A DNA stretch of 64,000 bases, taken from positions 1,623 to 65,622 of the forward strand of contig JAZQJV010000003.1 of NCBI GenBank assembly GCA_045541795.1, written 5' to 3'. Below the pieces are notes generated by a model. The model made no database searches. It was not told the DNA's origin and was given only the letters and a program-made list of their open reading frames with translations. Positions 2,974 through 59,089 of this stretch are shown here, one piece after another; within the stretch, counting starts at the first letter, position 1; every line of letters starts with the position of its first letter. The stretch is from Patescibacteria group bacterium. Lineage in GTDB: Bacteria > Patescibacteriota > Microgenomatia > UBA1400 > PJMF01. The translations under genes were made by a program, and so were the position numbers.

Positions 2974-2982
2974 AATGTATTA

Positions 2983-3011
2983 ATTATACCACAAAACGGC
3001 CCTTTTGTCAA
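2983..3011 (-). promoter_or_regulatory. sigma70-type promoter for argS (TTGACA-17-TATAAT, TGTGG extended -10), 9 nt upstream of the ATG
   Basis: Minus-strand TTGACAAAAGGGCCGTTTTGTGGTATAAT. Near-identical to the elements at 7669 and 8603. Confidence 0.5.
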
Positions 3012-3035
3012 GAGGTAATTTCCAGATAAAAAACG

Positions 3036-5197: not shown

Positions 5198-5228
5198 CTA
5201 GATAAGGAGTGCGGGCAGAATTAAATGT

Positions 5229-5412
5229 GTCTTGGAGGCAGCGCACCGAAAACCCGTTGTACTTATTGTTGTTGTTCTGCGGGTAGATATTACTAGAATT
5301 CAAGTTCAGGTTGTACGCGTTCGTCGTTGAGTTAAGAGAGCTAGACCACCAGTTGGCGTTCGAGCCTTGATTGTTCAGCGAGGAACCATTGGCGTTGCCT
5401 GAGATAGCAGAC
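5229..5412 (-). repeat. DGR template repeat (TR)
   Basis: 184 bp, identical to 6236..6419 except 16 positions. Every one is T on the plus strand (A on the coding strand) in TR. It encodes the N-rich (AAC) version of the VR peptide. Confidence 0.85.
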
Positions 5413-6219
5413 AGACTCCGGGAAACCTGGGCGAGCCGCACGGCCCAGCCAGCCGAAATCCCAACAACCTGGTGCCAGCCGGGTACACGGCTATGCTGCA
5501 GTTGATCGCTCACCCACGGGGAAGCAAAAGAAGAAAAAGAAGAAAAGAGGCAGTGACAAGTACACAGACCAACAGCCCGTGTACACACTGGTGTGGACTT
5601 ACGCGCGGATGGCATCCACCCGAACTTGTAGCGCAAGTAGATCAATAGACTCAATCCTTCATGAGCCGGCGTCAGATAACCGCCAAAAGGTCGCAGTCGG
5701 CCAAGCCGACCAGCGAGCCCGGGCCCGACTACCCGCTCCTTACCTAGTTGTACCTCTAACTTAAAGAGCCACCCAGCTGGCGCAGCCAGCGGATCGGATA
5801 GACCACCCGCCAGCTCGGCTGGGTGCCGTCTCATAACCGCTCCAGTATAGCAGACATGCTGGCTCTTGTCAAGAGTGAATTGGGAGGAGCTGGTTTTTGA
5901 TATAGTTTGTATCATTTGTCCTTTTTTGGGCGCGGCCTGCGGCGCTTAGCGCCGCAGGCCATTGCCCTGCATCTTAGAGAGTAGAAAGTTTAGCGTTGGC
6001 TAGTAGTAGTTCCTTCAGGTGCCCTACCGGGAACCCTCGGGTGTCTGGGGCTGGCGCCAGATGGACGTCGCTGGGGCGGGCCGCAATGCGTGCGGCCGCC
6101 GGAGAGCTCCTATCTGGCCTGCCGCCAGGAGTTACCTGATCTAAAGTGTTTGGTGGTAAAGTTTTTTGTTCTTTCATATTTACTTTCTTAGTGATCTGTT
6201 TGATATAGTTTGCCATAAA

Positions 6220-7455
6220 TTAATAGTCTTGGAGGCAGCGCACCGAAAACCCGTAGTACTTAGCGTTGTTGTTCTGCGGGTAGATATTACTAGAACCCAA
6301 GCCCAGGTTGTACGCGCCCGTCGTTGAGTTAAGAGAGCTAGACCACCAGAAGGCGCCCGAGCCTTGATAGTACAGCGAGGAACCATGGGCGTTGCCTGAG
6401 ATAGCAGACTTCCCCGAGGCATTCCAAGCATTGGCGCCGCTAGTCCTAAACCAATTCCATGACGTAGCACAATCGCTACTCGTACAACCATGACTCACAC
6501 TACTTCCTTGGACCGCGTCGGCCAATGCTTGGAATTCTTCTTTGGTGGGTACATGCCAACCAATGGGACAAATATCATGGGTGGCTTCAGTAGTCCCATT
6601 GGTACGGTTATTATATGTACCATTGTAATTGGCAGTGGAATTATTCATCGCCGCCTGCCAGTTATAAAGGAAACCGTCATAGTTACCGCCGTCGGCAGCA
6701 TTACGGCAGATACCGTAGTAGCCGGAGGCGACTTTGTTTTGGACGGAGCCTTGGTAGCTAGCATTGAAATCATTACCCGTGAGGCTGGCACAATTGCCAA
6801 ATTGGAGGTTTTGAGCCATCCAGCAGTGACCATCTATAAATTTGCGGATGATGTATTGCTTATTGTCACGGGCATCGGTGAGCGTGCCCACGGTGGTGTA
6901 GCCAGTGCGCGATGTGGGCGTGGCAAATTGAGCACAGGCTGCCTTGGTAAAAGATTGCATGGTGGAACCGATACAAGTACACTGCTCGGTGGCACTATTA
7001 TAGATATAGGCATCCGAGCAGTCACAGCCCACACCATTGCCGATGCATTTACTAGTGGTGGCGTCCCAGGTGCTATTGTCGCCACAGTAATTGGAGCCGG
7101 TACACTGTTGGGTGTAGGCATTGGCAGAGGTGAAGCATTTGGCGTAGGCATTGGGATAGGTGACGCCGTCGGGGCAAGCGGTGGTGGCGGCAGACGTCCA
7201 GGTGTTATCGGCCGTGCGGATGAGTTTTAGTTGGCCGCCAGTGGCGATCACAGAGGCGAGGTCGGTATCAATGAGTTTGCGGGTGGTAGTGGTAGAAGAG
7301 GCAGCGTGGGCGGTGGGAATCAACCCCTCCCCTCTGGCACTGCGTGCCACCTCCCCTCCGTAAGGGGAGGAGTTATAAGAAGTGGGGGCTATGAGGGCTC
7401 GCCCCCCCCCAACGCATTTTGGGCCACCCCAAGGATGGCGGCAAGCACCAGACAA
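6220..7455 (-). CDS. DGR target (variable) protein; Cys-rich N-region plus C-terminal FISUMP/Fib_succ_major domain (C-type lectin fold)
   Basis: Motifs HCWMAQNL, FLYNWQAA, ICPIGWHVPT, WWSSS, GFSVRCLQDY. The VR covers the last ~60 codons. The ORF as called starts at a TTG. An ATG plus signal peptide lies upstream in another frame. Confidence 0.8.
   Translation of the reverse strand: MSGACRHPWGGPKCVGGGRALIAPTSYNSSPYGGEVARSARGEGLIPTAHAASSTTTTRKLIDTDLASVIATGGQLKLIRTADNTWTSAATTACPDGVTYPNAYAKCFTSANAYTQQCTGSNYCGDNSTWDATTSKCIGNGVGCDCSDAYIYNSATEQCTCIGSTMQSFTKAACAQFATPTSRTGYTTVGTLTDARDNKQYIIRKFIDGHCWMAQNLQFGNCASLTGNDFNASYQGSVQNKVASGYYGICRNAADGGNYDGFLYNWQAAMNNSTANYNGTYNNRTNGTTEATHDICPIGWHVPTKEEFQALADAVQGSSVSHGCTSSDCATSWNWFRTSGANAWNASGKSAISGNAHGSSLYYQGSGAFWWSSSLNSTTGAYNLGLGSSNIYPQNNNAKYYGFSVRCLQDY
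6236..6419 (-). repeat. DGR variable repeat (VR) at the 3' end of the target gene
   Basis: Aligned with TR 5229..5412. Differences are A->N only: H/N, YY/NN, GAF/NAN, G/N, G/N, A/N, Y/N. Confidence 0.85.
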
Positions 7456-7605: not shown

Positions 7606-7668
7606 GGGGATCGCGGAGCTAAGATGAGATGGCGGGCGTTTGGGTGATTAGAGGCTGGATATTGCCTC

Positions 7669-7697
7669 TTGACAAAATGGTAGTTTTGTGGTATAAT
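7669..7697 (+). promoter_or_regulatory. consensus promoter TTGACAAAATGGTAGTTTTGTGGTATAAT with no downstream plus-strand gene
   Basis: Perfect -35/-10 with a 17-nt spacer. It is one member of a family of three near-identical 29-bp elements. It points antisense to the tRNA region. Confidence 0.45.
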
Positions 7698-8543: not shown

Positions 8544-8602
8544 TGAATAACGCCAAACACATTTGAGACTGGAAAAGGAACTCAACTGGAATTTTTAATA
8601 TC

Positions 8603-8631
8603 TTGACAAAATGGCAGTTTTGTGATATAAT
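8603..8631 (+). promoter_or_regulatory. consensus promoter TTGACAAAATGGCAGTTTTGTGATATAAT driving ORF 8717
   Basis: TTGACA-17-TATAAT. The spacer contains the inverted repeat ACAAAA/TTTTGT. Confidence 0.6.
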
Positions 8632-9156: not shown

Positions 9157-10071
9157 ATGCCGAGTAACAACGCTTACGACTTTTTGCGTCAATCCATTGC
9201 GGGCGGCGCTGGCGCGCCCGCTCGTGTGCCCGCGCCGGCGGCGCGCACCACGCCAGGGGGCGCACCCGCTGATTACTCCGCCATCCAACCGGAGCAGCCG
9301 CGCTACCGCGCGCCTGGCGAGCGGGAGCGCGAGGCAGAACTGACGCTAGATGACCTCCCCCCCGTCCCGCCGATTTTGACCCTGCCGCCAGGCGTGGATC
9401 TGCTGGACTTTGTAGGCCGGGTGGAGCGGGCTTATGATATACATTATACGGATGATAAATATGTAGATCCTAGTCTTCGCGGGGCGGCCGGCAACAGTGA
9501 GCACGCGCTAGACCTGCTGGATGATGCGGCCGTACGGATGAGTTTTGCTGACTACGCGGCTGCCAGCGATCTGTTTTCTTTGTGCGTGATACTGGCGCCA
9601 AATTATTTTTATCATTTTTGTTTGGCCTCGGCGCGCTATCATATGGGAGATTTTGATGGTACACTCGCCTACTCGCGGCTGGCTTTGGAAGGTATCCGCA
9701 AAAACGAAGAATTGAGTGACGGCATTCATTTTTACATGGATCAAATGGACTTTGTAGACGCTTTTTACTTCCAGTTTATCGAGAGTTTGATTTTTACAGG
9801 CAATCTGGACGAGGCCAAAAGCATGACGGATTTTGTAGTGAGTGGCAACGTCTTCCAGGTGGCCCAAAGTTACCTGGATCTGGCGTGTGATTACTCGCTG
9901 ATCGGTGAGTTGGCTTACGCCGCTAAGCTTATAGACCGGCTGATGCCGTATATCGGAGAGCTGGATGAAAAACGGCGCGCAATACTTTTAGCCTGGATAC
10001 CAAATATTTTGGCCGGTAAACCGGGCGAAAAACTAGTGGTGGACGGCGTGGACTTGACAAAACGGGGATAG
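9157..10071 (+). CDS. hypothetical protein
   Basis: The ORF 9103..10071 is trimmed to MPSNNAYDF at 9157. That start sits 7 nt downstream of TGGCATAAT (leaderless). Confidence 0.5.
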   Translation: MPSNNAYDFLRQSIAGGAGAPARVPAPAARTTPGGAPADYSAIQPEQPRYRAPGEREREAELTLDDLPPVPPILTLPPGVDLLDFVGRVERAYDIHYTDDKYVDPSLRGAAGNSEHALDLLDDAAVRMSFADYAAASDLFSLCVILAPNYFYHFCLASARYHMGDFDGTLAYSRLALEGIRKNEELSDGIHFYMDQMDFVDAFYFQFIESLIFTGNLDEAKSMTDFVVSGNVFQVAQSYLDLACDYSLIGELAYAAKLIDRLMPYIGELDEKRRAILLAWIPNILAGKPGEKLVVDGVDLTKRG

Positions 10072-10115
10072 TGTGATATAATAATATAGGATATGATAGA
10101 AAAAGTAACGACAAG

Positions 10116-13100
10116 ATGACAACAGAAGGAGCCAGATTATCAGCACAGGATCTAGGATTACCAGGTTGGAATTACGATCCCGAGCTGTCTAGACATGATG
10201 TTTTAACGGATACCGAATTGACTGAGGCATATGATGACAATGAGCGCCATGACGAAATAAATAAACTACGAAGTACGTACGAGCGTATCACTCATGAGTA
10301 TCAGCAGGATGGCGATACCGAGCTTTTGCTATCAGAGCTAAAGGTCCTATCTGCCTCAGCAGAGAAATTAACTAAAAAGTACCGTGAGCAGCGCATGGCA
10401 ATTTTGAAGAGCACTGAAAAAGACCCGGATGAAGTTTCACTTGCTTCTGCTCATTTAGCTTTCACAGCGATAAAGGATGTACATGACCTCACGGATAAAA
10501 TCAACGGGATCGTGGACACCGTCAGCGGCGAGGCAACAGCGCAAAAAGCGCCACTGGGATCGGAAACGAGGGCCGCTGGCGAGCCGACCAAGACAGAGCA
10601 GGCAGAGCCGGAAGTAAAACCGGCGGCAGAATCAACGCCAGAAGAAAAGCCGGCCGACAATGATACCGCCAAAACCGAGACTCAGCAAGAGAGCAAACCG
10701 GCCGAGAAGGAAGAACGGCCGCAAGAAAAACAAGAGGAAAAACCGGAAGAAAAGCTACCTTTCCAGCCAGAGCAAGTGAAGGTAAAAGGTGCAGACGGCA
10801 AAGAAAGACTGCTCAAACCTGAAGAGTTGGCTTGGTGGCAACCCGGCAAGACAGTAGAATGTATCAGTGGCTGGGATAAAATCGGCAGTGTGGCCGACGG
10901 CGGAATAGATAACGGCAGTCATATGTTCCGACTAGATAGCGGGACAGGACAGCTGATACTGCGCACGGCAGACGTGCCACCTACAGACAATGATAGCGTG
11001 GTGGATGAGCGTTTCCGCCCGCGGCGATTGGGAGAGATAAAAGAAATACAGGTACTCACGAGCGAGTGGAGCCAGACCAAGCAAGACGAGGCCGCACGGC
11101 GAAATGAGTATGAAGTGCTAGTCCGGACAAAAGACGGACGGGAATACCGTTTTGTGAGTACAGACAGCGAGATGTCACGTGAGCAAGCGCGAGTGGCTTA
11201 TGAGCAAGAGCAACAGGAGCAGCGTCAGGCCGCCCAGGCGCGAGAAGAAGAGCGGACTAAAGCTATCGAAGGCCACGAAAAAGAGCTGGCGATGGCGGAG
11301 CTTTTGGGGATCAAGGAAGATCTACACCAGATCAGCGAGGCGGCCACTATCGGCCTGCGTGACGACGGCAGCAACCGGCTGGATGAGAACAGTTTTGACA
11401 GTCTCCACCGAGAAATCCGCCGGAGCGTACTCACCAGGCGTCTGGAGACAGTGACAGCCATGCTAGAAGGTGGCGCGAGCGAGGACGAGCGGCGGGAGCT
11501 GGTAGCCGAGCAGGCGGCAATCCGTGAAGAGTTAAGTAAACTCAATGCTGCCGGGACGGCGCTAGAATTTGGTGAAATCAAAGATAAAAACGGGAAATTG
11601 ATCCTGAAGGCACGCGAGTACCAAAATTACCGTGAAGCGCTCAAAGGGGAAATCAAGGCCAGATCTACCCAACTAGAGCGTTACGCCGAGCGCGCCAACA
11701 AAAAAGATGGCCTCAAACCGCATGAGAGGTACGCTTTTGAGGAAGCACGCAAGGCTCTGGATGAGGCGATCGCCGTACAGCTAGAATATGAAGCCATAGC
11801 CGAGTATGATAGTTACCAGGCGCGGATAAATGCTATCAGCGAGGCGACGATCACTTACAAAGGTAGTGATAATAAAGACGTGACGGTGGATTTGCGCTCA
11901 GACGAAAAGAGCAAAAACGGAGAGATTTTATCTTTGCAGGGCAAACTTGCCGAGCTGGGTGACCAGATCGCGGCGGCGCAAGATTTCATCACTCGGATAG
12001 AGCAAAACCCTAATGCCCGTTATGACAAGCAGACGGTGGCAGAGGTAAAAGAAAAACGAGAACTGATCAAAGCCAAAAACAAGCAAGCTGAGCAAATCCG
12101 TGAAGTAATGCGCCAGCTGGAAGAAAAAGCCAGGAATTTGATGACTTTGCGTCAGGTCTTTTACCTACAAGCGCACGGTCGGGTGGAAGAAGAAGATGCC
12201 GCTCGCAGTGAGATGGGTATCGCTTATGACGTGACCAACGGCAATAATGAGTTTTTTAGCTATGCACTCACGGTGGCTTTAGGCAGCAGCGGTATCCAGG
12301 AGCAGTTAAAAGACTCTACGCTCAATGCAGACGGCCTGGCAGACATTTTGATCGGCCGGATGACACAAATTCATGACGACGCCGAGCGAGAATCCTCCCG
12401 TGGCAGCGGTATCGCTCGGGCGGTAAACTCTTTGCGGATGCTGAGTTTGTCTAGTACTTTCATTGATAAGGCTTACTACGGGATCGCAGGCAACGATGGC
12501 GTTTTTTCCAATAAACTCACTAGTGAGATGCTCATGATGTCTGGCGCGCAGCTGCTGCAAGCCAAGCGCAAGGCGCTAGAAGCCGTGCGCTACCGGGCGG
12601 GAGATTATGGTAGCACCAGCATAGACGATCAAGAAAATGCGCGCTGGCAAAAATTGAGAGCGGCCGAGGAAAATTGGGCAGCGAAAGACGCTGGCTTGAT
12701 GCCCAGAGTGATGGCCGCCGAGGATAATCTTGCTGAGCAAGACAGGAAACATCCGGCGGGATATAAGATCACGGCTGAGATACCGGTGGGTTATGAGTCC
12801 ATAGACCAAGCGATCGCCAGAGATGAGAATGCCCAGCGTGGTCAACAGCGCCGACGGGAAGCAGTAGGGCAGGCCAAGGGACAGCTAGACGACACGGTGG
12901 CGAGCCGGCTGGAGGACTTGCAGCCATACCGGGCAGAAGTCGATAGATACCGGGAAGATGTTTTCGCCAAGTATGACCGGTTGATGAGCGAGTGGGAGAC
13001 GGAAAAGAAGGCACTGAAAGCACAGGTAGACGCCAAGCAGACAGAAATCCAGGGTCTACTCAAGCAAAAGCAAGCACTGGAGGATGAGCGGAGACGTCGG

Positions 13101-19648: not shown

Positions 19649-20605
19649 ATGCAAGCGACAAGAGATGGGTTTGGCGAGGCAATTTATGAACTGGTGGCGG
19701 CCGATAAGGATCTCGTGGTGATGACGGCGGATCTGGCCGCCAGCCTTGGGCTAGGAAAAGTCAAAAAGGATTTTCCTGACCAATTCGTAGAATGCGGGAT
19801 TTGCGAGCAAAATATGGTGAGTGTCGCCGCCGGGATCGCAATGACCGGCAAAAAAGTGGTCACTGCCGGCTTTGCCGCCTTCCATCCTGGGCGAGACTGG
19901 GATCAGATCCGGGTAAGTGTATGTGAGCAAAACCTGGATGTGAAAATCGTGGGCAGCCACGCGGGTTTGGCTACCGGGCCAGATGGCGCCACGCATCAAG
20001 CTTTAGAAGATATTGCCTTAATGAGTTGCTTGCCGCACATGCGCGTGTACGTGCCGGCAGACAGCAGCGAGGCCAAGGCATTGACGGCAGCAATGGTCAA
20101 TGAAGCAGGCCCGGGATATTTGCGCTTGTCGCGCGAGCCGAGCGAGGAAATCGCGCGAGGCAAGGCACCCATCGTACCTGGTAAAGGCCAGCTGATCCGC
20201 GAGGGTGATGACTGTGTGATCGTGGCGTGCGGATTGACAGTGGCGCTAGCACTGCAGGTGGCAGAAAACTTACAAAAGGATGCTGATCTGCACGTAGGCG
20301 TGATCAATATGTCTACACTCGTACCGCTCGACGCTGAGCTTTTGGCCGAGCAAGCGGCTAAATGCGGCAGTATAGTAAGTGTGGAAGAACATCAAGTAAT
20401 TGGCGGTTTGGGGCAGATGGTGGCCGGGCAGCTGGCGCGCCGCACGCCCTGTGTGATGGAAATGGTGGGCATAGAGGGGAAATTTGGTCAGTCTGGCAGC
20501 AGAGCACAGCTATGGGAGCAGTATGGGCTGAGTGAGGAAAACCTGCGGGAACACGTCTTGCGGGCAATTGAGCGCAAAATTAATGCCGGCCGGGTGGAAG
20601 ATTGA
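19649..20605 (+). CDS. transketolase, C-terminal (pyrimidine-binding) subunit
   Basis: 318 aa immediately after the N subunit, forming a split tkt. Confidence 0.85.
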   Translation: MQATRDGFGEAIYELVAADKDLVVMTADLAASLGLGKVKKDFPDQFVECGICEQNMVSVAAGIAMTGKKVVTAGFAAFHPGRDWDQIRVSVCEQNLDVKIVGSHAGLATGPDGATHQALEDIALMSCLPHMRVYVPADSSEAKALTAAMVNEAGPGYLRLSREPSEEIARGKAPIVPGKGQLIREGDDCVIVACGLTVALALQVAENLQKDADLHVGVINMSTLVPLDAELLAEQAAKCGSIVSVEEHQVIGGLGQMVAGQLARRTPCVMEMVGIEGKFGQSGSRAQLWEQYGLSEENLREHVLRAIERKINAGRVED

Positions 20606-20617
20606 GGGAAGTTTCTG

Positions 20618-20648
20618 GTTTTTTCGTACTGACAGTGTGAGTACAAAG
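20618..20648. repeat. 31-bp repeat GTTTTTTCGTACTGACAGTGTGAGTACAAAG containing the 19-bp palindrome GTACTGACAGTGTGAGTAC, copy 1
   Basis: Second copy at 21352..21382. Together they bracket the mazF-like gene. Confidence 0.6.
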
Positions 20649-20675
20649 GGAGAATGCGGGTGTGGAAAGTGGGTC

Positions 20676-20703
20676 TTGACGGATTGCGGTTTTGTGGTAT
20701 AAT
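20676..20703 (+). promoter_or_regulatory. promoter-like TTGACG-16-TATAAT followed 33 nt later by a hairpin; possible short antisense or sRNA transcript
   Basis: cTTGACGgattgcggttttgtggTATAAT, then the hairpin at 20736..20755. Confidence 0.3.
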
Positions 20704-20735
20704 AAGGTTGTATTTTGGAGATTTTCTCCCAATTC

Positions 20736-20755
20736 CCCCTGATGCGAGTCAGGGG
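20736..20755. terminator. hairpin CCCCTGA-tgcgag-TCAGGGG at the 3' end of the mazF-like gene
   Basis: 7-bp perfect stem, followed by tcaaattttgtc on the plus strand. Confidence 0.4.
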
Positions 20756-21162
20756 TCAAATTTTGTCTGGTAATACGACATGAATTTATCCTGCACAGTA
20801 TGTAGGTCAGTGTCGTCTATCCGTCCCAGACAGCTATACAAACGGAGAGTGCTTATAGTCCTCACTTGTAATAATGCTGCCCAGCTGGCCCGACCATGAA
20901 AATTAAACTTCACGTAAGAGCAAGTAGTTTTCTCCTGTGTCGTCAGCGGGATTACGGTACAGCTCAAGTTGTTATGCTTTTTATAAATTAGTACGGGGCG
21001 CGAGAACTTATTACTTTTGCCGTTCATTTCCACGCCGATGTTTTCACCCAGGGCACACCACCAGACTTCACCTTCATGGATTGTGGGATAATGCGGGTCG
21101 CGTGTCGCCAGCCGAGTTTTTAGCTCATACCATTGCTTTAATCTAATTTCCTTTTCTTGCAT
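20749..21162 (-). CDS. MazF/PemK-family endoribonuclease toxin-like protein, with no adjacent antitoxin ORF
   Basis: GEVWWCALGENIGVEMNGK...RPVLIY...TVIPLTTQEK follows the PemK pattern (GxIxxVxF...GxEQxGxRPxLVxS...PxTTQ). Confidence 0.55.
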   Translation of the reverse strand: MQEKEIRLKQWYELKTRLATRDPHYPTIHEGEVWWCALGENIGVEMNGKSNKFSRPVLIYKKHNNLSCTVIPLTTQEKTTCSYVKFNFHGRASWAALLQVRTISTLRLYSCLGRIDDTDLHTVQDKFMSYYQTKFDP

Positions 21163-21351
21163 TCCTCATATTATCTACACAATTCTTTCAAATTCTTTCA
21201 AATTTATGATAGATTTACGGGATTTTTTGGCAACGAAATAACGTAATTTTATGTATAAATCATGAAAAATTAGAACGGTATTTTATCGTGAGAATTGACG
21301 AGTTAAGCGCCGAAAGCGTGGCTGACAGCCGCCTATCCGTAAAGTTTCGTG

Positions 21352-21382
21352 TTTTTTTCGTACTGACAGTGTGAGTACAAAG
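21352..21382. repeat. 31-bp repeat containing the palindrome GTACTGACAGTGTGAGTAC, copy 2
   Basis: Identical to 20618..20648. Confidence 0.6.
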
Positions 21383-21564
21383 CTAGCTGCGTGAAGTTTT
21401 CGCGATTTAAATATGGATCAGCATTTTGACCGCCTGGAACATGTCTTTGATGAAGGACGCGGCGAACTTCGCCACGAAATTGAGGAACCACGACAGCGTG
21501 TGGCTGACATGATACATCACCGCTTCGCGAGCGTTTTGCTGTTTTTGGGCAATTTGGTATTCGA

Positions 21565-22836
21565 TCATGATTTACGCTTTTCTAAGGCTTCCAAGCCTGG
21601 TAATTTTTTGCCGGCTAGATATTCCAGGGCGGCAGAGCCGGCCATACTCACATAATCCACTTGATCAGTGTAGCCGAGTTTGTCCAGAGCCGCCAGGGTG
21701 TCTCCCCCACCCACCAGGGTGACGGCGCCAGTTTTGGCCACCGCGCGGGCGACTTCCCTGGTGCCGGTGGCAAAAGGCTTGCGCTCAAAAATCCCCATCG
21801 GGCCGTTCCAAAAAACGGTTTCAGCCTGGAGGATGAGTTCGCGGTAGAGTTTGGTAGTCTTCGGGCCGATATCCAGGTACATGTTTTTACCGCGTTTGGC
21901 GATTTTGTCATTGTCAGTGAGGTCGACAATTTCGGTTTGTCGGCTGTCAAAGCCGGGAGCGGCCACCACATCCACGGGATAAATAATTTTGGGCAGCGGG
22001 ATATAGCCGTCTTTGAGCAGGCGGCGAGACCGGTTATCAGTGATGATCTGGTCGGCGAGATCGACGTAATTGAGGCCGACTTTGCGCAGATCGGCGGGCG
22101 TATCTTGGAGGTAGGATTTTTGCACCGCCAAGCCCACGGCCTTGAGGAAATTGTTGGCCACGCCGCCACCGATGAGGACAGCATCCGCGATTTTGGCCAG
22201 ATTGACGATGGGGTCAATTTTGTCTGAGATTTTGGCGCCGCCCACCACCACCACAAAAGGATGAGCCGGCGTGGCCAGTAAGTGAGAAAAAGCATCCACC
22301 TCGTCTGCCAAAGCCAGGCCGGCGGCCGCCGGGAGGACACCCGGGAGGCCGTACACCGAAGCGTGAGCGCGGTGAGAGCTGGAGAAAGCATCATTGACGT
22401 AAGCGTCAGCCAGGGAGGCAAGCGTTTTCACAAAATCGGGGTCATTTTTCTTTTCGCCAGGGTAAAAACGCAAGTTTTCCAGCAAAAAAACGCTGCCAGC
22501 GGGGCTGGCGGTGATTTGCTCGCGAATGGGTGCCGGGTCTAAGTAGTCCGGGACAAAAGTAAGCGGCCAGGAAGTGGCTTTGCGCAGGTAATTAAAAACT
22601 GGTTTGAGGGAAAATTTTTTTTGATCGGGGCTTTCGGGGCGGCCAAGATGAGAGATGAGAATGACCTTACAGTTGAGCCGGAGTAAATATTCTACGGTAC
22701 GAAATGAAGCCTGGATACGGCGGGGATCGCGTACCACATAGCCGGCGCCGTTGGCGGAAAGCGGGACGTTGTAATCCACGCGGACGATGACGGTTTTGTT
22801 GGCTAGTGAGAGACTGGAAAGTTGGGTAATTGACAT
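21565..22836 (-). CDS. pgk: phosphoglycerate kinase
   Basis: VIVRVDYNVPL, the hinge GGGA region and the C-terminal ATP-binding motifs. Trimmed to MSITQL, which sits 7 nt after TGGTATCAT. Confidence 0.9.
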   Translation of the reverse strand: MSITQLSSLSLANKTVIVRVDYNVPLSANGAGYVVRDPRRIQASFRTVEYLLRLNCKVILISHLGRPESPDQKKFSLKPVFNYLRKATSWPLTFVPDYLDPAPIREQITASPAGSVFLLENLRFYPGEKKNDPDFVKTLASLADAYVNDAFSSSHRAHASVYGLPGVLPAAAGLALADEVDAFSHLLATPAHPFVVVVGGAKISDKIDPIVNLAKIADAVLIGGGVANNFLKAVGLAVQKSYLQDTPADLRKVGLNYVDLADQIITDNRSRRLLKDGYIPLPKIIYPVDVVAAPGFDSRQTEIVDLTDNDKIAKRGKNMYLDIGPKTTKLYRELILQAETVFWNGPMGIFERKPFATGTREVARAVAKTGAVTLVGGGDTLAALDKLGYTDQVDYVSMAGSAALEYLAGKKLPGLEALEKRKS

Positions 22837-24489: not shown

Positions 24490-24770
24490 AAGTGGCGATA
24501 ATTGCCAGTGAAAAGGCTTTTTGCTAGCAAAAGTGGGAAAAATTGGGGAGTTTTGCTAGTGGAAGAGGGGTTTTGTTGGCAAAAAAGGCCCGTTAGCAGC
24601 AACTGCCGACGGGCCAGGTTTTCTTTCACTTGCCGGTAAACTTACCAAACGCCATCTTGAGCCAGGAGAAATTCCAGGGCTGATGAAGCTTGTCAAGAGC
24701 CCATTTTTCTCCCTTTCGGCACCCCATAATACCTCCGGTTTACCAAAAATTGTAACTAGAACCGTTTTCC

Positions 24771-24832
24771 GTTTACAAAAGTAGGTAAAAATAGTAAGTT
24801 TTGTAAATAGAAATGGAATTTGGTTACAAAAA
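24771..24832 (+). repeat. 62-bp direct repeat, copy 1 (GTTTACAAAAGTAGGTAAAAATAGTAAGTTTTGTAAATAGAAATGGAATTTGGTTACAAAAA)
   Basis: Exact second copy at 26106..26167. The pair flanks the AAA ATPase gene and its promoter. Confidence 0.7.
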
Positions 24833-24833
24833 C

Positions 24834-24862
24834 TTGACATTTTCCCGCGGCCGTGTTATAAT
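24834..24862 (+). promoter_or_regulatory. promoter TTGACA-17-TATAAT for the AAA ATPase gene (leaderless, 7 nt to ATG)
   Basis: cTTGACAttttcccgcggccgtgtTATAATtacatatATG. Confidence 0.55.
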
Positions 24863-24869
24863 TACATAT

Positions 24870-26090
24870 ATGAAAATAATTGAAAGACATTATTTGCGTG
24901 AGCTACTAGCGGTACTGCATACTCCCGATATTAAAGTGATTACTGGCGTGCGGCGGGCGGGTAAATCCACGCTTTTGCAACAGTTGACTGAGCACATTAT
25001 CCACAATATCCCTCAGAGTAACTTGATCCATATCAACTATAATCTTCACGATTTTTATCATTTGCGCGACCACGAGTCAGCGTATGCGTATATCAGCGAG
25101 CGTCTGCGGCCCAGCCTGGAAAATTACGTATTGATTGATGAAGTACAGATGTGTGACGGCTTTGAGTGGGTGATTAACAGCTTACATGCTAGCGGCAGGT
25201 GTCACATCGTGATCACAGGCTCAAATGCCTTTCTTGAACACACTGATTTAGGCACGCTTTTTGTGGGGCGGATTTATTCTCTCCAGATGTACCCGTTTTC
25301 TTTTCGTGAATATTGCCGGTATTTTCCTCGCCTTTATATTGATGATGCTTGGGATCGATATTTGCGTGATGGCGGCTTTGCTGGTAGCTATGAGTATCCA
25401 AATAGTGAGCAAAAAAGTACTTATGTCCGTGATGTTTTCCGGACGTTAATTGTCCGTGACATCGTGGGAAAATATAAAATCAAAGATGAAGCAATGTTGC
25501 AACAACTGATTGACTTTTTAGCCGACAATATCGGCAATATCACCTCCGCCAATAAGATTGCCAACGTTTTGAATGCCTCTGGAGTGGATACCAATCACAA
25601 TACCGTCAACGCCTACCTAGACTATTTGTGCCGGAGTTTTGCCTTTTACCGGGTGCGCCGGTATGACATCAAGGGTAAGGATTATCTGCGCTCTCAAGAC
25701 AAATATTACCTAGTAGATCCAAGTTTTCGCACAGCGCGTCTAGGTAATCGTTTCCCAGATTATGGATTGGTTTTTGAAAACATCGTCGCGATAGAACTTC
25801 TGCGGCGCGGCTGGGAGTTATATGTGGGTGTGGTCAGCAGCAAAGATCTGGAAATAGATTTTGTGGCCAGAAAGGCTGACCGCGAGCTTTATATCCAAGT
25901 AAGCGATGATATATCTCGAGACGAGACGCTAAATCGGGAACTGAGTTCGCTACAAGCCGTAAAGAATAACCACCCGAAGATCATTTTGGCCCGGACGAGG
26001 GCAGACGCTGGCACGAGAGACGGCATTATCATTGCCGATCTGGCGCGCACACTCGCCAATCCCCATGCCTTTGATGAGCTAAAATTGTAA
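24870..26090 (+). CDS. AAA+ ATPase, DUF4143 family
   Basis: Walker A GVRRAGKST, Walker B VLIDEVQ, then ITGS...LGTLFVGRIYSLQMYPFSFRE (DUF4143). The ORF 24813 is trimmed to MKIIERH. Confidence 0.75.
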   Translation: MKIIERHYLRELLAVLHTPDIKVITGVRRAGKSTLLQQLTEHIIHNIPQSNLIHINYNLHDFYHLRDHESAYAYISERLRPSLENYVLIDEVQMCDGFEWVINSLHASGRCHIVITGSNAFLEHTDLGTLFVGRIYSLQMYPFSFREYCRYFPRLYIDDAWDRYLRDGGFAGSYEYPNSEQKSTYVRDVFRTLIVRDIVGKYKIKDEAMLQQLIDFLADNIGNITSANKIANVLNASGVDTNHNTVNAYLDYLCRSFAFYRVRRYDIKGKDYLRSQDKYYLVDPSFRTARLGNRFPDYGLVFENIVAIELLRRGWELYVGVVSSKDLEIDFVARKADRELYIQVSDDISRDETLNRELSSLQAVKNNHPKIILARTRADAGTRDGIIIADLARTLANPHAFDELKL

Positions 26091-26105
26091 ACAAAGACGA
26101 TTTTT

Positions 26106-26167
26106 GTTTACAAAAGTAGGTAAAAATAGTAAGTTTTGTAAATAGAAATGGAATTTGGTTACAAAAA
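26106..26167 (+). repeat. 62-bp direct repeat, copy 2
   Basis: Identical to 24771..24832. Confidence 0.7.
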
Positions 26168-28899: not shown

Positions 28900-29640
28900 G
28901 TGAGTGAGGTGGCAAAAAAACCCGGGGCAAACTGGCCGCTTTACTTACTCATGAGTGCAGGGCTGGGGTTGATATTGCTAGCCGGCGTACCTTTTGCCCG
29001 GGGATGGTGGCAACAAATACTGGATTCACAGGCGGAAAACATCGTCTACCCGCTAGAGATGAATGAGTTTTGGGCGCGAGTGGAAGCCAACCCCAAAATC
29101 ATCGCGGACATTGACGCCGTGACGGCGAAAGCGCCCACAATCGTGGACGAGATCGACTACGGCAACATCGAAAACTGGTTTAGTGACGGGAAATTCCACG
29201 CGCAAAAGCAGACGTCGCAAAGCTATACGCTTGACATAGAAAAGCTCGGTATAAAAAATGCCCTCGTAAAGGTGGGCGGTACAAATATTGATCACAATTT
29301 GGTACAATTTAATACCGACCGGACGATCGGCGATTATGGAGCGCCGGTGATTTTTGGTCACAGCATGCTGCGGCAGTTTTATAATCCCAAGGAAACCAAT
29401 AAAGAGCGATACAAAGGTATTTTCTCCACTATCATGACACTGGAGACGGGAGATGAGATCAAAATCACCATTGCTGGCGTGACGTACACTTTCTTGGTGA
29501 CGGAAAAAAAGGAAGTCAAGCCTGACGATGATTATATCATGAGTCAGGATGTAAGCAAAAAACAAATTAAATTGGTGACGTGCACGCCCGAAGGCACGAG
29601 GCTGCGGCGCGGAGTAATCACGGCAGAGCTAAAAAGTTGA
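28900..29640 (+). CDS. sortase-family transpeptidase
   Basis: His in APVIFGHSML, Cys in KLVTCTPEG (TLxTC-like), Arg in RLRRGV, and an N-terminal membrane anchor. Confidence 0.7.
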   Translation: MSEVAKKPGANWPLYLLMSAGLGLILLAGVPFARGWWQQILDSQAENIVYPLEMNEFWARVEANPKIIADIDAVTAKAPTIVDEIDYGNIENWFSDGKFHAQKQTSQSYTLDIEKLGIKNALVKVGGTNIDHNLVQFNTDRTIGDYGAPVIFGHSMLRQFYNPKETNKERYKGIFSTIMTLETGDEIKITIAGVTYTFLVTEKKEVKPDDDYIMSQDVSKKQIKLVTCTPEGTRLRRGVITAELKS

Positions 29641-30131: not shown

Positions 30132-33100
30132 CTATGGATTGAGGTCAGGATTGTCGGCGTACATGTAGGCAGAGCTATTGGCGCGGTGGAGCGTGTTGTA
30201 GATCGGGAAGTAGAAGCTGATATTGTAATTCTTGGTGACGCTCATACCGGAGTCATTATCGCGGATAGTAACCGTGTGCGGACCAGGGAAGGTGTAATTG
30301 GTCAGCGTGAGACCAAATTCTTCCACCGGGATGGCAAAGGTAAAGCCAGTCTGCTCGCCAGCAATGGTGCTCACATCGATCGTCTTGACGATGGAGGTGC
30401 CGTTGATCGCCAAGGTAATGGTGAAGTTCTTGGGCACGCTCATGGCGGGAATATAGCCTTCGATGAGAATGTCATCATTGGTGGGCACCAGGCGCACATT
30501 CCAGGTGAGCTCACCGTCGGCCACATTGTCGATCAGATCAATGTAGCTCGGCATACTGGCGTAGTAGTAAGTATCAGTGAAGGTACTCACGTGACCCACA
30601 TTATCCACCGCACAGACATAGAGAGTATGCTGTCCCTCGTCGATGGTGATACCGATATTGGAACCACTGGCGATGGTGGTGCCGCCGGTGCAACTGTCAC
30701 CCAGGCTGTTTTCATTCCAGGCGTAAGCAATGCGAGCGAGACCCGAGAGAGTATCCACCGCCGTGACATCAATATTTTGACGGGTGGAAGTCCAGCCGGG
30801 GACTGCCGGGGTGACTTCGAGCGTGGGCGCGGCGAGGTCAATGCGATTGGCCGGTGAGGTACAAGTGGTAGACACGCCCACATTATTGGTGATGGTCACC
30901 TGGCAGGTGGCGCCGTGGACAGCCACAGCGGTACAAGAGTAGCTATCCTGAGCCATGCCAGACACACCACCGTCAGAATCCGTGAGGACGAAAAGCTGTT
31001 GGTTGGAGACACTCTTCCAGTCTACCGGATCGGCCGGAGTCCAAGTGCCGCAGACAGGAGCCTCAAAGTTGGCGTAAACCGTCTGAGTACTGGTGACCGT
31101 AGTGATGTTGGCGACATTATCTGCCACGGAGACACGGTAACGGTAGCAGTGACCATTGGTCATATTGGCCGTGGCGGTGAGCGTACCGGCTGAGTACGTG
31201 AAGGCAGTATCCTCGTAGGCTGCTCCGGTGAGATCACAGCTAGAAGTGTTACCCGTGGTGACGGTAGTACCCATGATCCGCTCTACTCTCCAGGTGGAGT
31301 CATTGATGCCAGACTGCGTATCGCTGACACCTGTAAGCTGGAGGTTGATAGCACCGTTATTGGTGACGTACTGATCCGTGTAGCCGAGTGAGAAACTGGG
31401 CGCCGTCTGATCGTTGATCACATTGATCCGGCAGCTGGCGGTAGTACCGTTACCATAAGTGTAGACGATGGTGCCAGAGCCAGTGGATTCGGCTGCTTCC
31501 GCCCAGGCGTAGGTCTTGGTGTAAGTACCGGCGCCGCCTTCATGAGTGCCAGTGCCGGCTGGAGTAAGGCTCCAGTTGGCGTTAAATGGCGGATAGTAGA
31601 CACTAGTGATGCCGGAGTCTGGCTCAGCAAGCTGAGTGGTCAATTGGAAGGAACCAGTGCGACCCGTGCTAGCAGCGTAATCATAGCTGGAGTAATAGAG
31701 CGTATCGCTGCCCGCTTGATGCTGATAGTCAGTATTGGTCACTGGCGTGAGGGTACAAGTCAGCGCAGGTGTGGCCGGATCCACCTTATTTTCTGGTGAC
31801 TGACAGACCTTGGTATTGCCAGCGCGATCAGTCAGGGTGACGGAGCAAGTGCTGCCGGTGGTAGCCGCCGTAGTACAAGTGGTCACCAGTCCAGAGCTTA
31901 AGCCCGAGCCAGCATCGCTGGAACCCACGAGGGTGAAAGGCTGACCGCCGCTCGTGCGCCACGGATTCACCTCGGCCGGATCCCAGCTACCGCAGGTGGG
32001 CGCTTCGAGGTCAATGGCGATCTGGCAAGTATCGCCGCTGGCCGTAGACGTGGTAGTAGCTTGATTGCCGACCTTATCCGTGCTGACCAGCAGATAACGA
32101 TAACAGGTATTGGTAGCCGCGCCAGATACAGCGTGATTGGTGACGCCACCCGTAGCGACAATGCTACAGCTATCACTAGTGTCTGCGCAGTCCGCAGTGA
32201 GGTCTGCCGGGTAAGAGCAAGCGCCGCCAGCGAGAGTGCCGATTTGCTGGACGAGATAGCTGGAGGCAGTATCCAGGCCAGAGCCAGAGTACGTGATGCC
32301 GCTGACAGTAGACTCCGGATCGGCGCCATAATCCACCTTGATGGAGAAGGACGAGGAGTTTTGGGCGCCGGCCGGGCAAGTGGTGATGCGGCCAGCTGGA
32401 GCCTGATCGTCATAGACGAGGGTGAAGTCAGTGCTCGCCGCGCGCAGACCATTATTGGCTAGGGCAAGACGATCGGCATAGACAGTCTTATTGGAATCGT
32501 TGAGGTAGTAGACGCGGTAGTAGGTATTGATGTCTGCTCCCGGGATACCGGCCACAGTGGTGGCATCATTGAGGTTTTGGAAGGCAGTGGACGAGATAGT
32601 GCCGCTGGAGCCGCCAGTAGCCGTGGCCAGCACGGTGACATTACTACCACTGGTGGGTGCGTAGTAAGCCGTGGTGGCACCATCATAGTAGAAGTTTTCA
32701 CTGGTGGAGGTGATGGAGTCGATGCTGATTTCAGGCACGTTGGTATCCACGATGAAGGAATTGGTGGACGTGATGACGGCCGTATTGGAGACATTATCTG
32801 TCACGAGCACGCGGTAACGATAGCACTTGCCGTCTACCAAGGTGTCATTGGCCACGATTGCATCCGCAGTGAGGTAGGCGTCATCATAGGTATTGATGGT
32901 GGCATAGTCAGAGCAACCTTCAGCTTCGCTGCACTCGTAATTGCAGGTGTAGTCAGCGACACTGACATCTCCCGTGCCGTCACCAGTGTAAGTAGCCACG
33001 CCGGTAGCACGTTGGATGGTCCAACTCTTGATGCCGGAACCAGAATCCGTGACGCTAGACTTACCCAGTCCCAGCGCGAGCTCACGAGAGCCGGCGCGAT

Positions 33101-36100
33101 TGGTCACTCCAGTGGCATAAGTGAGGCTAGCCGGGGCGATAGGATTGTCTGGATCAGCAATAGCGCTGACCTGACAAGAGCTGGTATTATTGTTACCAAA
33201 GGTCATAGTGACGCTGGAGTTGGAGTCATCACGGCGGGTAGTGGTATCCCAAGTATAGTTGCGCTCATACACGCGGGGATTACCAGTGGCCGAGCGGCTA
33301 GACTCAGCGGCAGTATTGGCAGCCAAAGCCGGGAAGTTTACCTTGGCGATGCCAGAGGAAGGTACGCTGGCGGCCGTGGTACGGACGGTGAAATTACCAG
33401 CCGAGAGTGACGGATTGTAGTAAATAGTGCTGTCATCTGGCAGGTAGCTAGTACCGGAGACCGGAGACACTTGACAAGTGAGAGCGGCCACTTCGTCGTC
33501 GATATTATTGGTGGGCGAAGTACAGGTGGCAGTATTGCCGGCCTGATCATAGATCGTGACGTCGCAAGTCTCACCGTCGATAGCATTGACTGTGGAGCAA
33601 GTGAAGCTGCTCGCGCCGATGCCAGAACCAGTATCCGTAGAACCGTAAAGGGTGAAGGTCTGATTGGCAGCAGTATTCTTCCAAGGTACTTGAGCAGGAT
33701 CCCAAGTGGTACCGCAGACAGGAGCGGTGGTATCCACCTTGATCTCATTGGGGCTGGCGATCGTAGCGATGTTACCCACATTATCGCTCACACGTACCTG
33801 GAAGCGGTAACACTTACCACTCTCAAGGGTGTCAGTAGTGGCGATAGCGGTCACCTTACCGTCAGTAGTGGTAAGACCAGCGCTGACTTCGCTGTAAGCG
33901 CCGTAAGCAGAGCAAGTGCCGCCGCTCAAGGTCCCTTCGCTGCGCCAGACAGTCCAGGAGTCTTCATCAATACCAGAGCCGCTATCAGTGGGACGAGTGA
34001 GGCCGAGGTTGACGGTGTGAGTCGAGGCTTGGTTGATGTAGGCGGTAGCGTAGCCCAGAGAGCCGTCTACTGGAGCGGTGTGATCAGGAATGATAGCGAC
34101 GTTGCACTGACCGCTAGTGCCGTTGCCGTAGGCAAACTTCACGCTAGCACGCTCACTACCGGCAGCCCCTTGTACCCAGGAGTAAGCCTGAGTGTAGTGA
34201 CCGCTGGCTGAGGTCTGACTACCAGCCGTCCAGCCTTCTGCCAACACTGGGAACTGCTTGGAGGTAATGTGTGAGGACGGTTCATCAAGCTTGACACCCA
34301 GGAGGAAGGAACCATTGATGCTGGCACCAGAGCTGGCTTCGCCGTTATTGTAGTAGAGGGTGGGCAGCGTGCCGACAGTAGTCGCATACTGATACTGTGG
34401 CGCTGTGCCTTCAGTGATGGTACAGGTGAGTTCTGGCGTATCGCCGTCCACCTTATTGACAGGTGAGGTACACACGCTCATGCGGCCGGCATGGTCATAG
34501 ATGGAGACAGTACAGGTATCACCAGTCTTATCACCAGTGGCACACTCTCCCCCACTCACCTTGATGCCGGAGCCGGAATCTGAGGAACCCGCGAGGATGA
34601 AGGTCTGACCGCCAGAAGTATTCCAGGGGTTGACTTCGGCTGGAGTCCAGCTGCCGCAGGTAGGATTATTCAGGTCTACCTTTACCGTGCAGGTGGCGGA
34701 AGTTTCATTGCGGACGTGATCGCGAGCGACGAGACGGTAAATGTAGCAAGCTTCGCTGGCGTCAGTTTCTTGGTAAGTGGTATCACCCACGCTACCCACA
34801 GGAGCAAAGACGGCGCTTGCGGTATCGCAGGTACCATTGGCCAGGAGTGGCACGACCGCACGCTCGATATGTGAGCCGTTTTCGCTGGTATTATCATTAC
34901 CAGAGAGACGATCAGTACCATAGCTACCAGCGATGGTGAAGTTATCCGTGGCTTGCCAGCCAGAAGGACAGGCGGTGAAGGCAACGTCTTGCGGTCCTTC
35001 GCTGTCATAGATCACGTCAAAGTACGCTTCATTGGTATCGTCAGTGGTATTGACCGCTTGTAGGATCATATCAGTCATGGTACTGGTAAGACCCGTGAAC
35101 TCATAGAAGTGATCCTGGTAAGTGGGGGTGGTGGGGGTGGGATAGGTGTAACGGGTGGAGGAAGTGCGGTCAAAGTTTTCATAAAGCACCTGAGTGATGC
35201 CAGCACCGACCGCCGTGGAATTGGTGCGAGCGGTGGTGGTTACCTGAGCGCCGCGAGCGTTACTATTGGGACCGTAGTAGATGGTAGACGCCTCATCAAA
35301 GTAGTAGATGTCGTCTGCAGTCGGCGTCACACTGGTGATGTAGATTTCTGGTAGATTGGAGTTGACCATGATCACGTTTTCCGCCGTGAAGATGGAGACA
35401 TTATCCACGCGGTCAGTCGCGACGACGCGGTAGCGGTAGCAGCTCATATCTTGCAGGTCATCATTGACACTCATGATACCAGAGCCATAGGAGGTGTAGT
35501 CGTTGGCGCCAAAGGAGACCATATCGCTGCTGCCCCAATCTTGCCAGTCAGTACAGACATTATCCGTGCCGAGTGTACCCTTGATCCGTTGGATTTCGAG
35601 TGTGGCGAGGCCAGCACCGTCATCAGCAAAGTCAGCGGCCGTGATACCAAGCTTGACGTCGCGCGCACCCGGGATACCGTACTTGATGTTCTTGTACTTG
35701 GGAGCGCTACCGGCCGGAGCAGTACTATCGGCGATCACCGAGACAGAGCAGGTATTAGAGTTGTAGTTGCCATAAGTAACCCAGACGAGTTCGTTTTCGC
35801 TGGAGCGAGTACTAGTGGATGACCAGGCATAGTCACGAGTGAAGACGGTAGGCGTGGTGACACTGGCGGACTGGGTAGCGTAGTGCTCATTGCTGCCGGC
35901 CAGAGCTGGGAAGTAAGCGTAAGCGATGCCAGAGCGAGGTTGCTCGTCTGCGGTGGCGACGACGCGGAAAGTACCGCTACCCTTAGCCGGATTGTAATAG
36001 AGCAAGTTCTTATCGCTGATCAGATACTGAGTACCGGTACCAGAGACCAGACCGCAGGTGACGTCGGGATTGGCGAGGTCGATGCGATTGGCAGGAGACT

Positions 36101-43856: not shown

Positions 43857-44059
43857 TCATTTTAACACGTCAGCGTCCATTTTGCAACACCATTTTGGGG
43901 CAATTTCCGCCTGGTAGGCAAACTGGCCTACAAGTAAATTGTAAGTTACAATGTGAGTGACATTTTAAGTTTTTTTTGCTACCGTACTACTTTGTCCAAA
44001 TCATTCTTCACTAGTGCACACCGTTTCCGAATACAATTTCTTGTGGTATAATCGGGCGT

Positions 44060-51261: not shown

Positions 51262-51269
51262 GAGGGCGA

Positions 51270-59068: not shown

Positions 59069-59089
59069 AAGGGATATTTTAGCAAAAAA

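Follow-up and report, generated by a model that had tools for sequence, protein, structure and literature searches.

The present analysis concerns a 64,000-nucleotide stretch of DNA (the window) from a Patescibacteria group bacterium, a member of the candidate phyla radiation (CPR), and within it a block of about 830 bp that lies between the convergent genes tktC and orf53-pgk and carries a toxin gene of the PemK/MazF family together with a predicted small-RNA gene on the opposite strand. MazF and PemK are standard examples of type II toxins, and 'type II' is the label that automated annotation gives to all the related genes discussed below. An original prediction, made from the letters of the window, had described a MazF/PemK-like toxin gene without an antitoxin in a low-GC cassette bounded by 31-bp direct repeats, and had suggested that a short antisense RNA, as in type I or type III systems, could be encoded opposite its 3' end. 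The locus comprises the following features, given in window coordinates; promoters and terminators are, here and throughout, consensus predictions.

20577 to 21407: inserted block, approximate edges, containing a new tktC tail, repeat 1, the small-RNA gene, the toxin gene, its leader and repeat 2
20537 to 20605, plus strand: last 23 codons of tktC, inside a recently exchanged tract recognised by synonymous divergence (dS) and a break in identity
20609 to 20648, plus strand: direct repeat copy 1, 40 nt, with an imperfect palindrome at 20626-20644
20676 to 20703, plus strand: predicted small-RNA promoter (TTGACG, 16-nt spacer, TGgTATAAT), score 11/12, extended -10
20710 to 20766, plus strand: predicted RNA, about 57 nt long and convergent with the toxin gene; covariance-model match of 53.9 bits
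20717 to 20729, plus strand: hairpin 1 of the predicted RNA
20736 to 20755, plus strand: terminator hairpin of the predicted RNA, followed by a U-rich tail to about 20766
20749 to 21162, minus strand: PemK/MazF-family endoribonuclease gene, 137 aa, with an extra N-terminal helix
21182 to 21201: tandem 10-mer, ATTCTTTCAA twice (read on the toxin strand, TTGAAAGAAT twice), downstream of the predicted -10 and ahead of the start codon
21206 to 21233, minus strand: predicted toxin promoter (TTGCCA, 16-nt spacer, TATCAT), from a consensus scan only, score 10/12
21342 to 21382, plus strand: direct repeat copy 2, 41 nt, with an imperfect palindrome at 21360-21378
21407 to 21568, minus strand: flanking 53-aa gene (orf53), outside the cassette, its start overlapping the pgk stop codon

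The assignment of the toxin gene to the MazF/PemK family was confirmed by a hidden Markov model search, in which its open reading frame (ORF) matches PF02452 above the curated cutoff (E=2.9e-12; 47.2 bits against 23.1; residues 30-128). The AlphaFold2 model (predicted local distance difference test score, pLDDT, 84.7) has the SH3-like MazF barrel and a C-terminal helix, preceded by an extra N-terminal helix at residues 2-20. When this model was compared with the Protein Data Bank (PDB) by Foldseek, the top 50 matches were all MazF, with target-normalised template modelling (TM) scores of 0.65-0.76, and the best among them were S. aureus MazF, B. subtilis YdcE/MazF and M. tuberculosis MazF-mt1. 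Across 26 homologues R55-P56 is invariant and T75, within a PLTT motif, nearly so; as motifs, these resemble the ones that hold the catalytic Arg (R29) and Thr (T52) of E. coli MazF. Since the MazF fold and R55-P56/T75 are kept, the toxin is probably an active endoribonuclease. Its AT-rich leader holds the twofold tandem repeat that had been predicted there, now located at 21182-21201; the 10-mer TTGAAAGAAT is identical in a syntenic contig from the Joint Genome Institute (JGI; L001), and the pair is possibly an operator or an element of the 5' untranslated region. Directly upstream of the start codon, at 21171-21179, stands a DnaA-box-like TTATCTACA, the L001 equivalent of which carries two substitutions that give TTATCCGCA, also 8/9 to the DnaA-box consensus. 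The leader was also considered as a degenerate second RNA unit and rejected, nothing in it being alike beyond the 41-bp repeat.

No protein antitoxin adjoins the toxin gene, either here or at the homologue loci examined, and the view of the gene as a toxin without an antitoxin neighbour is upheld. Between the toxin start and the upstream repeat (repeat 2) the toxin strand has no ORF of at least 25 aa, in agreement with the earlier statement that no antitoxin-sized ORF lies between the repeat copies. The nearest gene beyond the cassette, orf53, is real, because it differs from its L001 counterpart by 12 synonymous and 1 non-synonymous changes; it was ruled out as an antitoxin since it adjoins pgk at a site in a relative (L078) that lacks the toxin, and is absent beside every other toxin homologue examined. 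It has no family match, and belongs with pgk. An 80-aa ORF on the plus strand (21413-21655) was discarded as non-coding, with 1 synonymous against 12 non-synonymous differences in the same comparison with L001. At about 15 homologue loci no annotated or called neighbour matches a known antitoxin family; the neighbours include unannotated hypotheticals at L004, at L074 and in Nitratiruptor, and a Geobacillus homologue has a helix-turn-helix gene downstream. As a control, a Piscirickettsia PemK without the N-terminal helix has the usual MazE/AbrB gene overlapping upstream. Searches with PADLOC, NCBIfam and PDB sequences yielded nothing useful.

Convergent with the toxin gene lies what is very probably a genuine small-RNA gene. 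Its predicted promoter matches a consensus that recurs upstream of real genes in this genome, for example dnaN (families D14 and D20), and is kept in L001. The RNA expected from it overlaps the last 18 nt of the toxin ORF, so placed that the toxin stop codon (20749-20751) falls inside the 3' arm of the hairpin at 20736-20755; it folds at -19.3 kcal/mol (z=-2.6) and has no Rfam match. The same layout stands opposite the toxin in all CPR loci scanned. A sigma-70 promoter close to consensus comes first, followed by some 10 nt with AU(A/U)UU at their end, hairpin 1 (4-5 bp, of the form YGRG / 4-5-nt loop / CYCR), a spacer of 3-9 nt, a GC-rich hairpin and a run of U that stops at the toxin stop codon or within it (L002, with a 20-nt gap, excepted). 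In each CPR region scanned the best promoter-like site (10-12/12) faces the toxin directly past its stop codon, with scores of 11/12 in the window and in L002, 11-12/12 at four sites in L071, 10/12 in L072 and 12/12 in L074.

A covariance model was built from five copies with hairpin 1 as its sole structure, as MAFFT could not align the variable terminator hairpin. It recovered six held-out copies (L001, L072 and four in L071; E 1.6e-13 to 4e-5), and nothing else better than E=0.4 was found in 123 kb searched on both strands. Its matches end 1-18 nt inside the toxin ORF in eight of the nine distinct CPR toxin genes that have one, L002 being the ninth. Hairpin 1 is paired in 44 of 44 cells, and in two of its four pairs both partners have changed (C-G/U-A/G-C and G-C/A-U); this degree of pairing and covariation was reached by none of 500 shuffles, and shifting the partners lowers pairing to about 55%. 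The opposite-strand promoter and hairpin singled out in the original prediction do define a short predicted RNA, the gene for which is conserved beside every homologue examined and shows compensatory changes. An encoded micro-peptide was rejected, as start codon, frame and length are not conserved. To judge from these loci, the whole MazF subfamily with the extra N-terminal helix appears to be accompanied by a conserved convergent small-RNA gene for which Rfam has no model.

Relatives of the toxin (39 homologue matches, the named ones from Saccharibacteria, Nomurabacteria and 'Patescibacteria group') are solitary genes set among those of housekeeping function at unrelated sites: between rpsJ and rplC (L072), between tktN and tktC (P0022), between RNase Y and groES (L069), after a pseudouridine synthase gene (L063), beside gyrA (L074) and, as two tandem cassettes, beside rpsJ (L071). 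In L071 (3835-5410) each tandem cassette has a 111-nt upstream repeat that holds a 29-nt palindrome with a perfect stem, and two small-RNA genes, which is evidence that the module can duplicate as a unit. The L072 cassette (2425-3067), set in the S10 operon between rpsJ and rplC, shows by eye a terminator after rpsJ and an outward promoter-like site facing rplC (TTGCAC, 14-nt spacer, TGTATAAT), as if restoring the expression of the split operon. Together with the cassette between tktN and tktC, it illustrates how a selfish module of less than 1 kb lodges in essential operons of minimal genomes.

The subfamily extends beyond the CPR. By tblastn, proteins of 30-35% identity that include the N-terminal helix were found on Campylobacterota replicons, namely a 5.8-kb Helicobacter suis plasmid with only five annotated features, Nitratiruptor plasmids, the C. 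jejuni prophage CJIE4, where terminase and portal flank the homologue, and the pVir plasmid of C. jejuni 81-176. An antitoxin gene is annotated beside none of the Campylobacterota homologues examined. Inspection by eye shows at each of these loci a promoter with an extended -10 that points towards the toxin gene, one or two hairpins, and a terminator directly next to the stop codon. In pVir the homologue (NC_008770, 30634-31038; 30% identity over residues 1-98, E=3e-5) has this convergent arrangement, with the extended -10 promoter, the hairpins and the terminator adjoining the stop codon; no annotated antitoxin gene lies next to it, and a gene for a 120-aa hypothetical protein lies 233 nt upstream. 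The Campylobacter RNA is longer (about 90-100 nt) and has no score with the CPR model.

Comparison with two relatives reveals the history of the block. In L078, the tktC of which is 65% identical, the site is empty, with neither toxin nor repeat, and tktC and the 53-aa ORF are convergent and overlap by 23 nt. Homology between the window and L078 ends at about 20577 and restarts at about 21408, and because of this empty site, which had been proposed as a check on the original prediction, the intervening stretch of about 830 bp is taken as an insertion between convergent tktC and orf53-pgk; it gives tktC a new C-terminal tail and stop codon. The low GC content previously ascribed to the cassette was also found: 0.42 in the block against 0.51 in the window and 0.54-0.56 in the flanking genes, which places it in the lowest 3% of 765-bp windows. 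L001 has the same neighbours, both repeats and a toxin of 99% amino-acid identity. Nucleotide identity with L001 is about 98% over 20537-21412 as against about 72% across the tkt genes, with a sharp drop at about 20537, and 89-92% in orf53 and the end of pgk. The values of dS are 0.048 in the toxin gene, 0.57 in orf53, 0.47 at the 3' end of pgk, and in tktC 1.23 over the first 293 codons and 0.0 over the last 23. Since the toxin dS of 0.05 contrasts with 0.5-1.2 in the flanking genes, the block must have spread recently. The edges of the exchanged tract and of the inserted block match exactly at the right and within 40 nt at the left (about 20537/20577 to 21407/21412), and they reach 32 nt and 25 nt past the repeats; the earlier description of a cassette bounded by its repeats has to be given up, the repeats being subterminal. 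We conclude with good confidence that the cassette is mobile and was recently exchanged, and the low dS indicates that a 26% difference between lineages in a housekeeping protein does not prevent the module from passing from one to the other.

These observations suggest a mechanism in which the cassette would encode a MazF-fold endoribonuclease from its own promoter, while a strong, constitutive-looking promoter on the opposite strand would give rise to the two-hairpin RNA of about 57 nt, its terminator overlapping the toxin stop codon. On the toxin strand no terminator precedes the RNA gene, the hairpins there being followed by A-rich rather than U-rich sequence; transcription of the toxin must therefore run on through the RNA gene, so that the mRNA ends with a sequence complementary to the entire small RNA. 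Were the two to pair, as happens in type I systems that overlap at the 3' end, the mRNA would be silenced or made unstable, and upon loss of the cassette the toxin would outlast the short-lived RNA. On balance, the locus is probably a horizontally moving addiction-type module composed of MazF and a cis-antisense RNA, and we favour, at much the same strength, the view that this RNA is the antitoxin. We infer that the RNA is transcribed, that it neutralises the toxin, and that it does so by antisense pairing and not by binding the protein. If the RNA is indeed the antitoxin, MazF would be added to the small number of protein toxins that are controlled by RNA, an explanation would be at hand for many 'orphan' MazF genes, and CPR genomes, which are almost without known regulatory RNAs, would gain a testable small-RNA family.

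Several points weigh against this interpretation. Classical type I toxins are small membrane peptides and not RNases of 137 aa. Hairpin 1 has only four pairs, and the alignment in which they were counted was fitted to the model. The divergent L074 element, which has no covariance-model match, was recognised by eye, as were the Campylobacterota elements, where the CPR model gives weak matches at the right position (E=1.3 in the CJIE4 prophage and E=8.9 in the H. suis plasmid). The promoters and terminators at the locus itself are putative sites, called by their consensus. The flanking repeats are not explained by an antisense-RNA model and are absent from other cassettes. The identity of the published CjpT, discussed at the end, with the pVir PemK homologue is no more than rather likely, and as our view is of a 64-kb window, a protein antitoxin might be encoded in trans elsewhere in the genome, an alternative to which we give very little weight and which is taken up below.

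The repeats call for an explanation of their own. The 31-mer is exact at 20618-20648 and has one mismatch, at its first base, at 21352-21382, so that the direct repeats that had been predicted do exist, exact over 30 bp instead of 31; none of 100 shuffles gave such a match. With one 1-nt indel and one substitution they grow to about 41 bp (20609-20648 and 21342-21382), beyond which the two cassette ends share no similarity. The centre of copy 1 lies about 75 nt upstream of the small-RNA start, the two copies bracket the two cassette promoters, and in L001 copy 2 has a T-to-C change in one arm of the palindrome. This palindrome, GTACTGACAgTGTGAGTAC, is present in each repeat as had been stated, and is imperfect, being symmetrical at 8 of 9 arm positions; it amounts to two inverted copies of the 9-mer GTACTCACA. 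Its likeness to the terminal palindrome of an array near dnaA stands, with 18 of 19 positions matching at 61198-61216 and 21 of 23 when the flanks are included. The array is flanked by the 3' end of dnaA and that of a small ORF which by eye resembles yidD:

61146 to 61216, plus strand: six GTACTCACA 9-mers, five direct and one inverted, in three 26-bp units of which the last is an inverted pair

The array units show an 11-bp half-site periodicity, and the core of the cassette repeat reads as a copy of the last unit. The palindrome occurs at only 3 loci in 64 kb. It is not a generic terminator motif, the objection foreseen in the original prediction: the repeat was rejected as an intrinsic terminator, since its hairpin is weak (-6.8 kcal/mol, z -1.0 to -1.6) and has no U-tract, A-rich sequence following on one strand and a T-run preceding on the other, and a terminator scan was silent. 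Nor is GTACTCACA a DnaA box, being 6/9 to the TTATCCACA-type consensus; the DnaA protein of the window has a Bac_DnaA_C domain, and a separate TTTTCCACA/TTATGCACA/TTATCCATA cluster is found at about 59120-59390, upstream of dnaN. The array was likewise rejected as an origin marked by a skew switch, GC skew being positive across the whole window. Flanking repeats are no trait of the family, since they are absent in L004, L063, L069, L072 and L074. Upstream of the L002 toxin there is a palindrome with similar arms and flanks, the alignment of which is marginal (21 of 500 shuffles), and homology with the cassette repeat was not accepted. Scans for the palindrome gave 3 matches in GTDB genomes and 55 in JGI metagenomes, all unrelated chance matches, and none in viral contigs; one metagenome match (L027, 1-570) is a eukaryote-like 30-bp tandem satellite (ATTGTGAGTRCTGTGGATGTATTTAT...), unrelated to the window. 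Three GTACTCAC-type sites of the same motif as the repeats and the array (one exact 9-mer, two 8/9) form a marginal cluster spanning less than 380 bp inside an ORF of 1817 aa (11052-11435).

Tentatively, and as a guess, we propose that a host DNA-binding protein recognises the repeats and binds the three 26-bp units beside dnaA as well. A somewhat unlikely alternative is that the 41-bp repeats are recombination sites, either attL/attR-like cores or hairpin ends of the IS200/IS605 kind mobilised in trans. Direct repeats of att-like length do flank a low-GC block that clearly moved, their subterminal imperfect palindromes, in the same orientation and 32 nt and 25 nt inside the block, loosely recall the ends of IS200/IS605 elements, and the marginally similar element upstream of the L002 toxin could be read in the same sense. 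Yet the exchanged tract and the indel both reach past the repeats, the L078 empty site has no repeat copy, and five other cassettes of the family do without flanking repeats. Among the 31 window ORFs scanned against Pfam there is neither an integrase nor a TnpA (Y1 transposase) or TnpB, and no other copy exists in the 64 kb; an integron attC site fits no better, the repeat being 41 bp without R boxes. Recognition of cassette ends would, moreover, leave the iteron-like 9-mer array near dnaA unexplained.

As for the RNA, the main rival to antisense pairing is that it binds the toxin protein directly, as a type III-like pseudo-substrate in the RNA groove of MazF. This we hold to be unlikely. MazF binds single-stranded RNA, and ToxN, the type III toxin, is of related fold; the RNA keeps a single-stranded AU(A/U)UU 5' of hairpin 1 and a hairpin that would be needless for antisense pairing alone, and its genes are duplicated in L071. 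Against direct binding speak the lack of tandem RNA repeats upstream on the toxin strand, the nature of the protein, which is PemK/MazF and not ToxN, and the strict 3' overlap with the toxin stop codon, a prediction of cis-antisense control. Joined with the guess on the repeats, direct binding leads to a broader scheme that we consider quite unlikely as a whole, in which MazF-fold toxins across phyla (CPR, Campylobacterota plasmids and phages) would be neutralised by a structured RNA that binds them, and in which, in the present lineage, two captured operator sites for an origin-proximal host protein on the GTACTCACA array would link the expression of toxin or RNA to replication or the cell cycle in a symbiont of minimal genome.

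It is improbable, too, that there is no antitoxin at all and that the protein is a tamed or housekeeping RNase, with the convergent element acting as a terminator or insulator against read-through into neighbouring operons. Cassettes inside essential operons do bring their own terminators and outward promoters, as in L072, and many homologues persist in CPR genomes although these are streamlined. An insulator, however, needs no promoter, whereas a near-consensus toxin-facing promoter is kept in every lineage; hairpin 1 covaries though it lies outside the terminator; R55 and T75 are retained; and the same module is carried by plasmids and prophages, where addiction functions are usual. Least probable of all is a split type II system, an orphan toxin with its protein antitoxin encoded in trans: the visible genome is 64 kb and orphan toxins are known, but no homologue locus in the CPR or Campylobacterota has a neighbour of a known antitoxin family, the 5.8-kb plasmid with its five annotated features included, and a mobile cassette could not gain a foothold in new hosts if its antitoxin were encoded at an unlinked locus, yet the present one has spread in recent times.

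The remainder of the window holds several further features. The region of dnaN and dnaA includes an oriC candidate (59070-59500): the roughly 430 bp of intergenic DNA that precede dnaN hold clustered 9-mers resembling DnaA boxes (TTTTCCACA and an inverted partner of it, TTATGCACA, TTTTACACA, TTATCCATA and TTTTCCACC), yet GC skew, positive across the whole window, does not change sign there. At 59503-62888, dnaN and two short ORFs (by eye rpmH and yidD) on the plus strand converge on minus-strand dnaA, and between these 3' ends the GTACTCACA array is accompanied by a long inverted repeat (about 61040-61137). A strong promoter of the type TCTTGACAAAA...TTTTGTGGTATAAT recurs at 7667-7697, 8601-8631, 10052-10082, 44029-44052, 59472-59495 and 60613-60636. 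At dnaN the -10 ends 8 nt before the ATG, a spacing shared by several toxin homologues, which suggests leaderless or near-leaderless mRNAs.

A likely diversity-generating retroelement occupies 3036-7455. Its RVT_1 reverse transcriptase gene (3036-4202, minus strand) is adjoined by a pair of 184-nt repeats of 91% identity (5229-5412 and 6226-6409), the second copy of which lies at the C-terminal end of a gene with a Fib_succ_major domain (6220-7455, minus strand), in the manner of a template repeat and its variable repeat. The window also has three paralogous genes for AAA_14/DUF4143 ATPases (15-1154, 24813-26090 and 50065-51297), the middle one flanked by a family of 87-nt repeats of up to 91% identity (24498-24584, 24746-24832 and 26081-26167). 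An 87-nt repeat of 86% identity with a GGGGAGG/CCTCCCC hairpin is found at 7290-7376 and, 42.6 kb away, at 49930-50016. A giant ORF of 4574 aa on the minus strand (30132-43856) contains many internal repeats (families D1, D2 and D5-D13) and adjoins a sortase gene (28900-29640); elsewhere there is a fragment of a TraG/VirB4-like ATPase (62898-63920).

Compared with known toxin-antitoxin systems, the module shares with the type II systems MazEF, PemIK and Kis-Kid the family and fold of its toxin and, by resemblance of motifs, the conserved Arg and Thr. It differs from them in its extra N-terminal helix, in the absence of an upstream MazE/PemI gene, or of any adjacent gene for a protein antitoxin at the locus or the homologues examined, and in having a convergent RNA gene as its candidate partner. 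With the type III systems ToxIN, CptIN and TenpIN it would have in common an RNA partner for an endoribonuclease of related fold. In those systems, unlike here, the antitoxin is a tandem-repeat array upstream on the same strand, processed by a toxin of the ToxN/AbiQ family; in the window the upstream region holds no more than a twice-repeated 10-mer, the RNA gene is convergent and downstream, and the toxin matches PemK alone in Pfam, has no PADLOC match and resembles MazF in structure. Of the two classes named in the original prediction, type I is thus favoured by the conserved convergent RNA, and the type III architecture of upstream same-strand RNA repeats is not present.

Among type I systems the closest in layout are TxpA/RatA and BsrG/SR4 of B. 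subtilis, in which duplex formation triggers decay or blocks translation. There, as here, the toxin gene is met head-on by a gene for a short RNA with a constitutive promoter, the two overlapping at the 3' end, a protein antitoxin is lacking, and the locus is on mobile or inserted DNA; at our locus the cis-antisense gene that overlaps the toxin gene is predicted from the sequence. Likewise compared from sequence, the RNA described here is shorter (about 57 nt) and has a conserved 5' hairpin, and instead of a small hydrophobic membrane peptide of fewer than 60 aa the toxin is a soluble MazF-fold RNase of 137 aa. SymE and RalR are known exceptions to the rule that type I toxins are small and hydrophobic. 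The proposed arrangement recalls SymE/SymR in that a sizeable protein toxin would be under the control of a cis-antisense RNA, but SymE has an AbrB/MazE-like fold, not that of MazF, SymR overlaps the 5' end of its target, and the locus is controlled by LexA. In E. coli, SymE/SymR is an RNA-targeting protein toxin under cis-antisense RNA (PMC1891008).

The most direct parallel may be pVir. According to two papers, a type I system is encoded on this plasmid, its antitoxin being the antisense RNA CjrA (PMC10470494, PMC7826846). That system aside, our literature search found no MazF with an RNA antitoxin described. The plasmid also bears, as detailed above, a homologue of our toxin with the same convergent layout. 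The toxin of the pVir pair is a protein called CjpT; we think it rather likely that CjpT is this PemK homologue, and CjrA may correspond to the convergent RNA. If CjpT belongs to the same family, the proposed mechanism already has experimental backing, and the novelty of the module described here would lie in its breadth.

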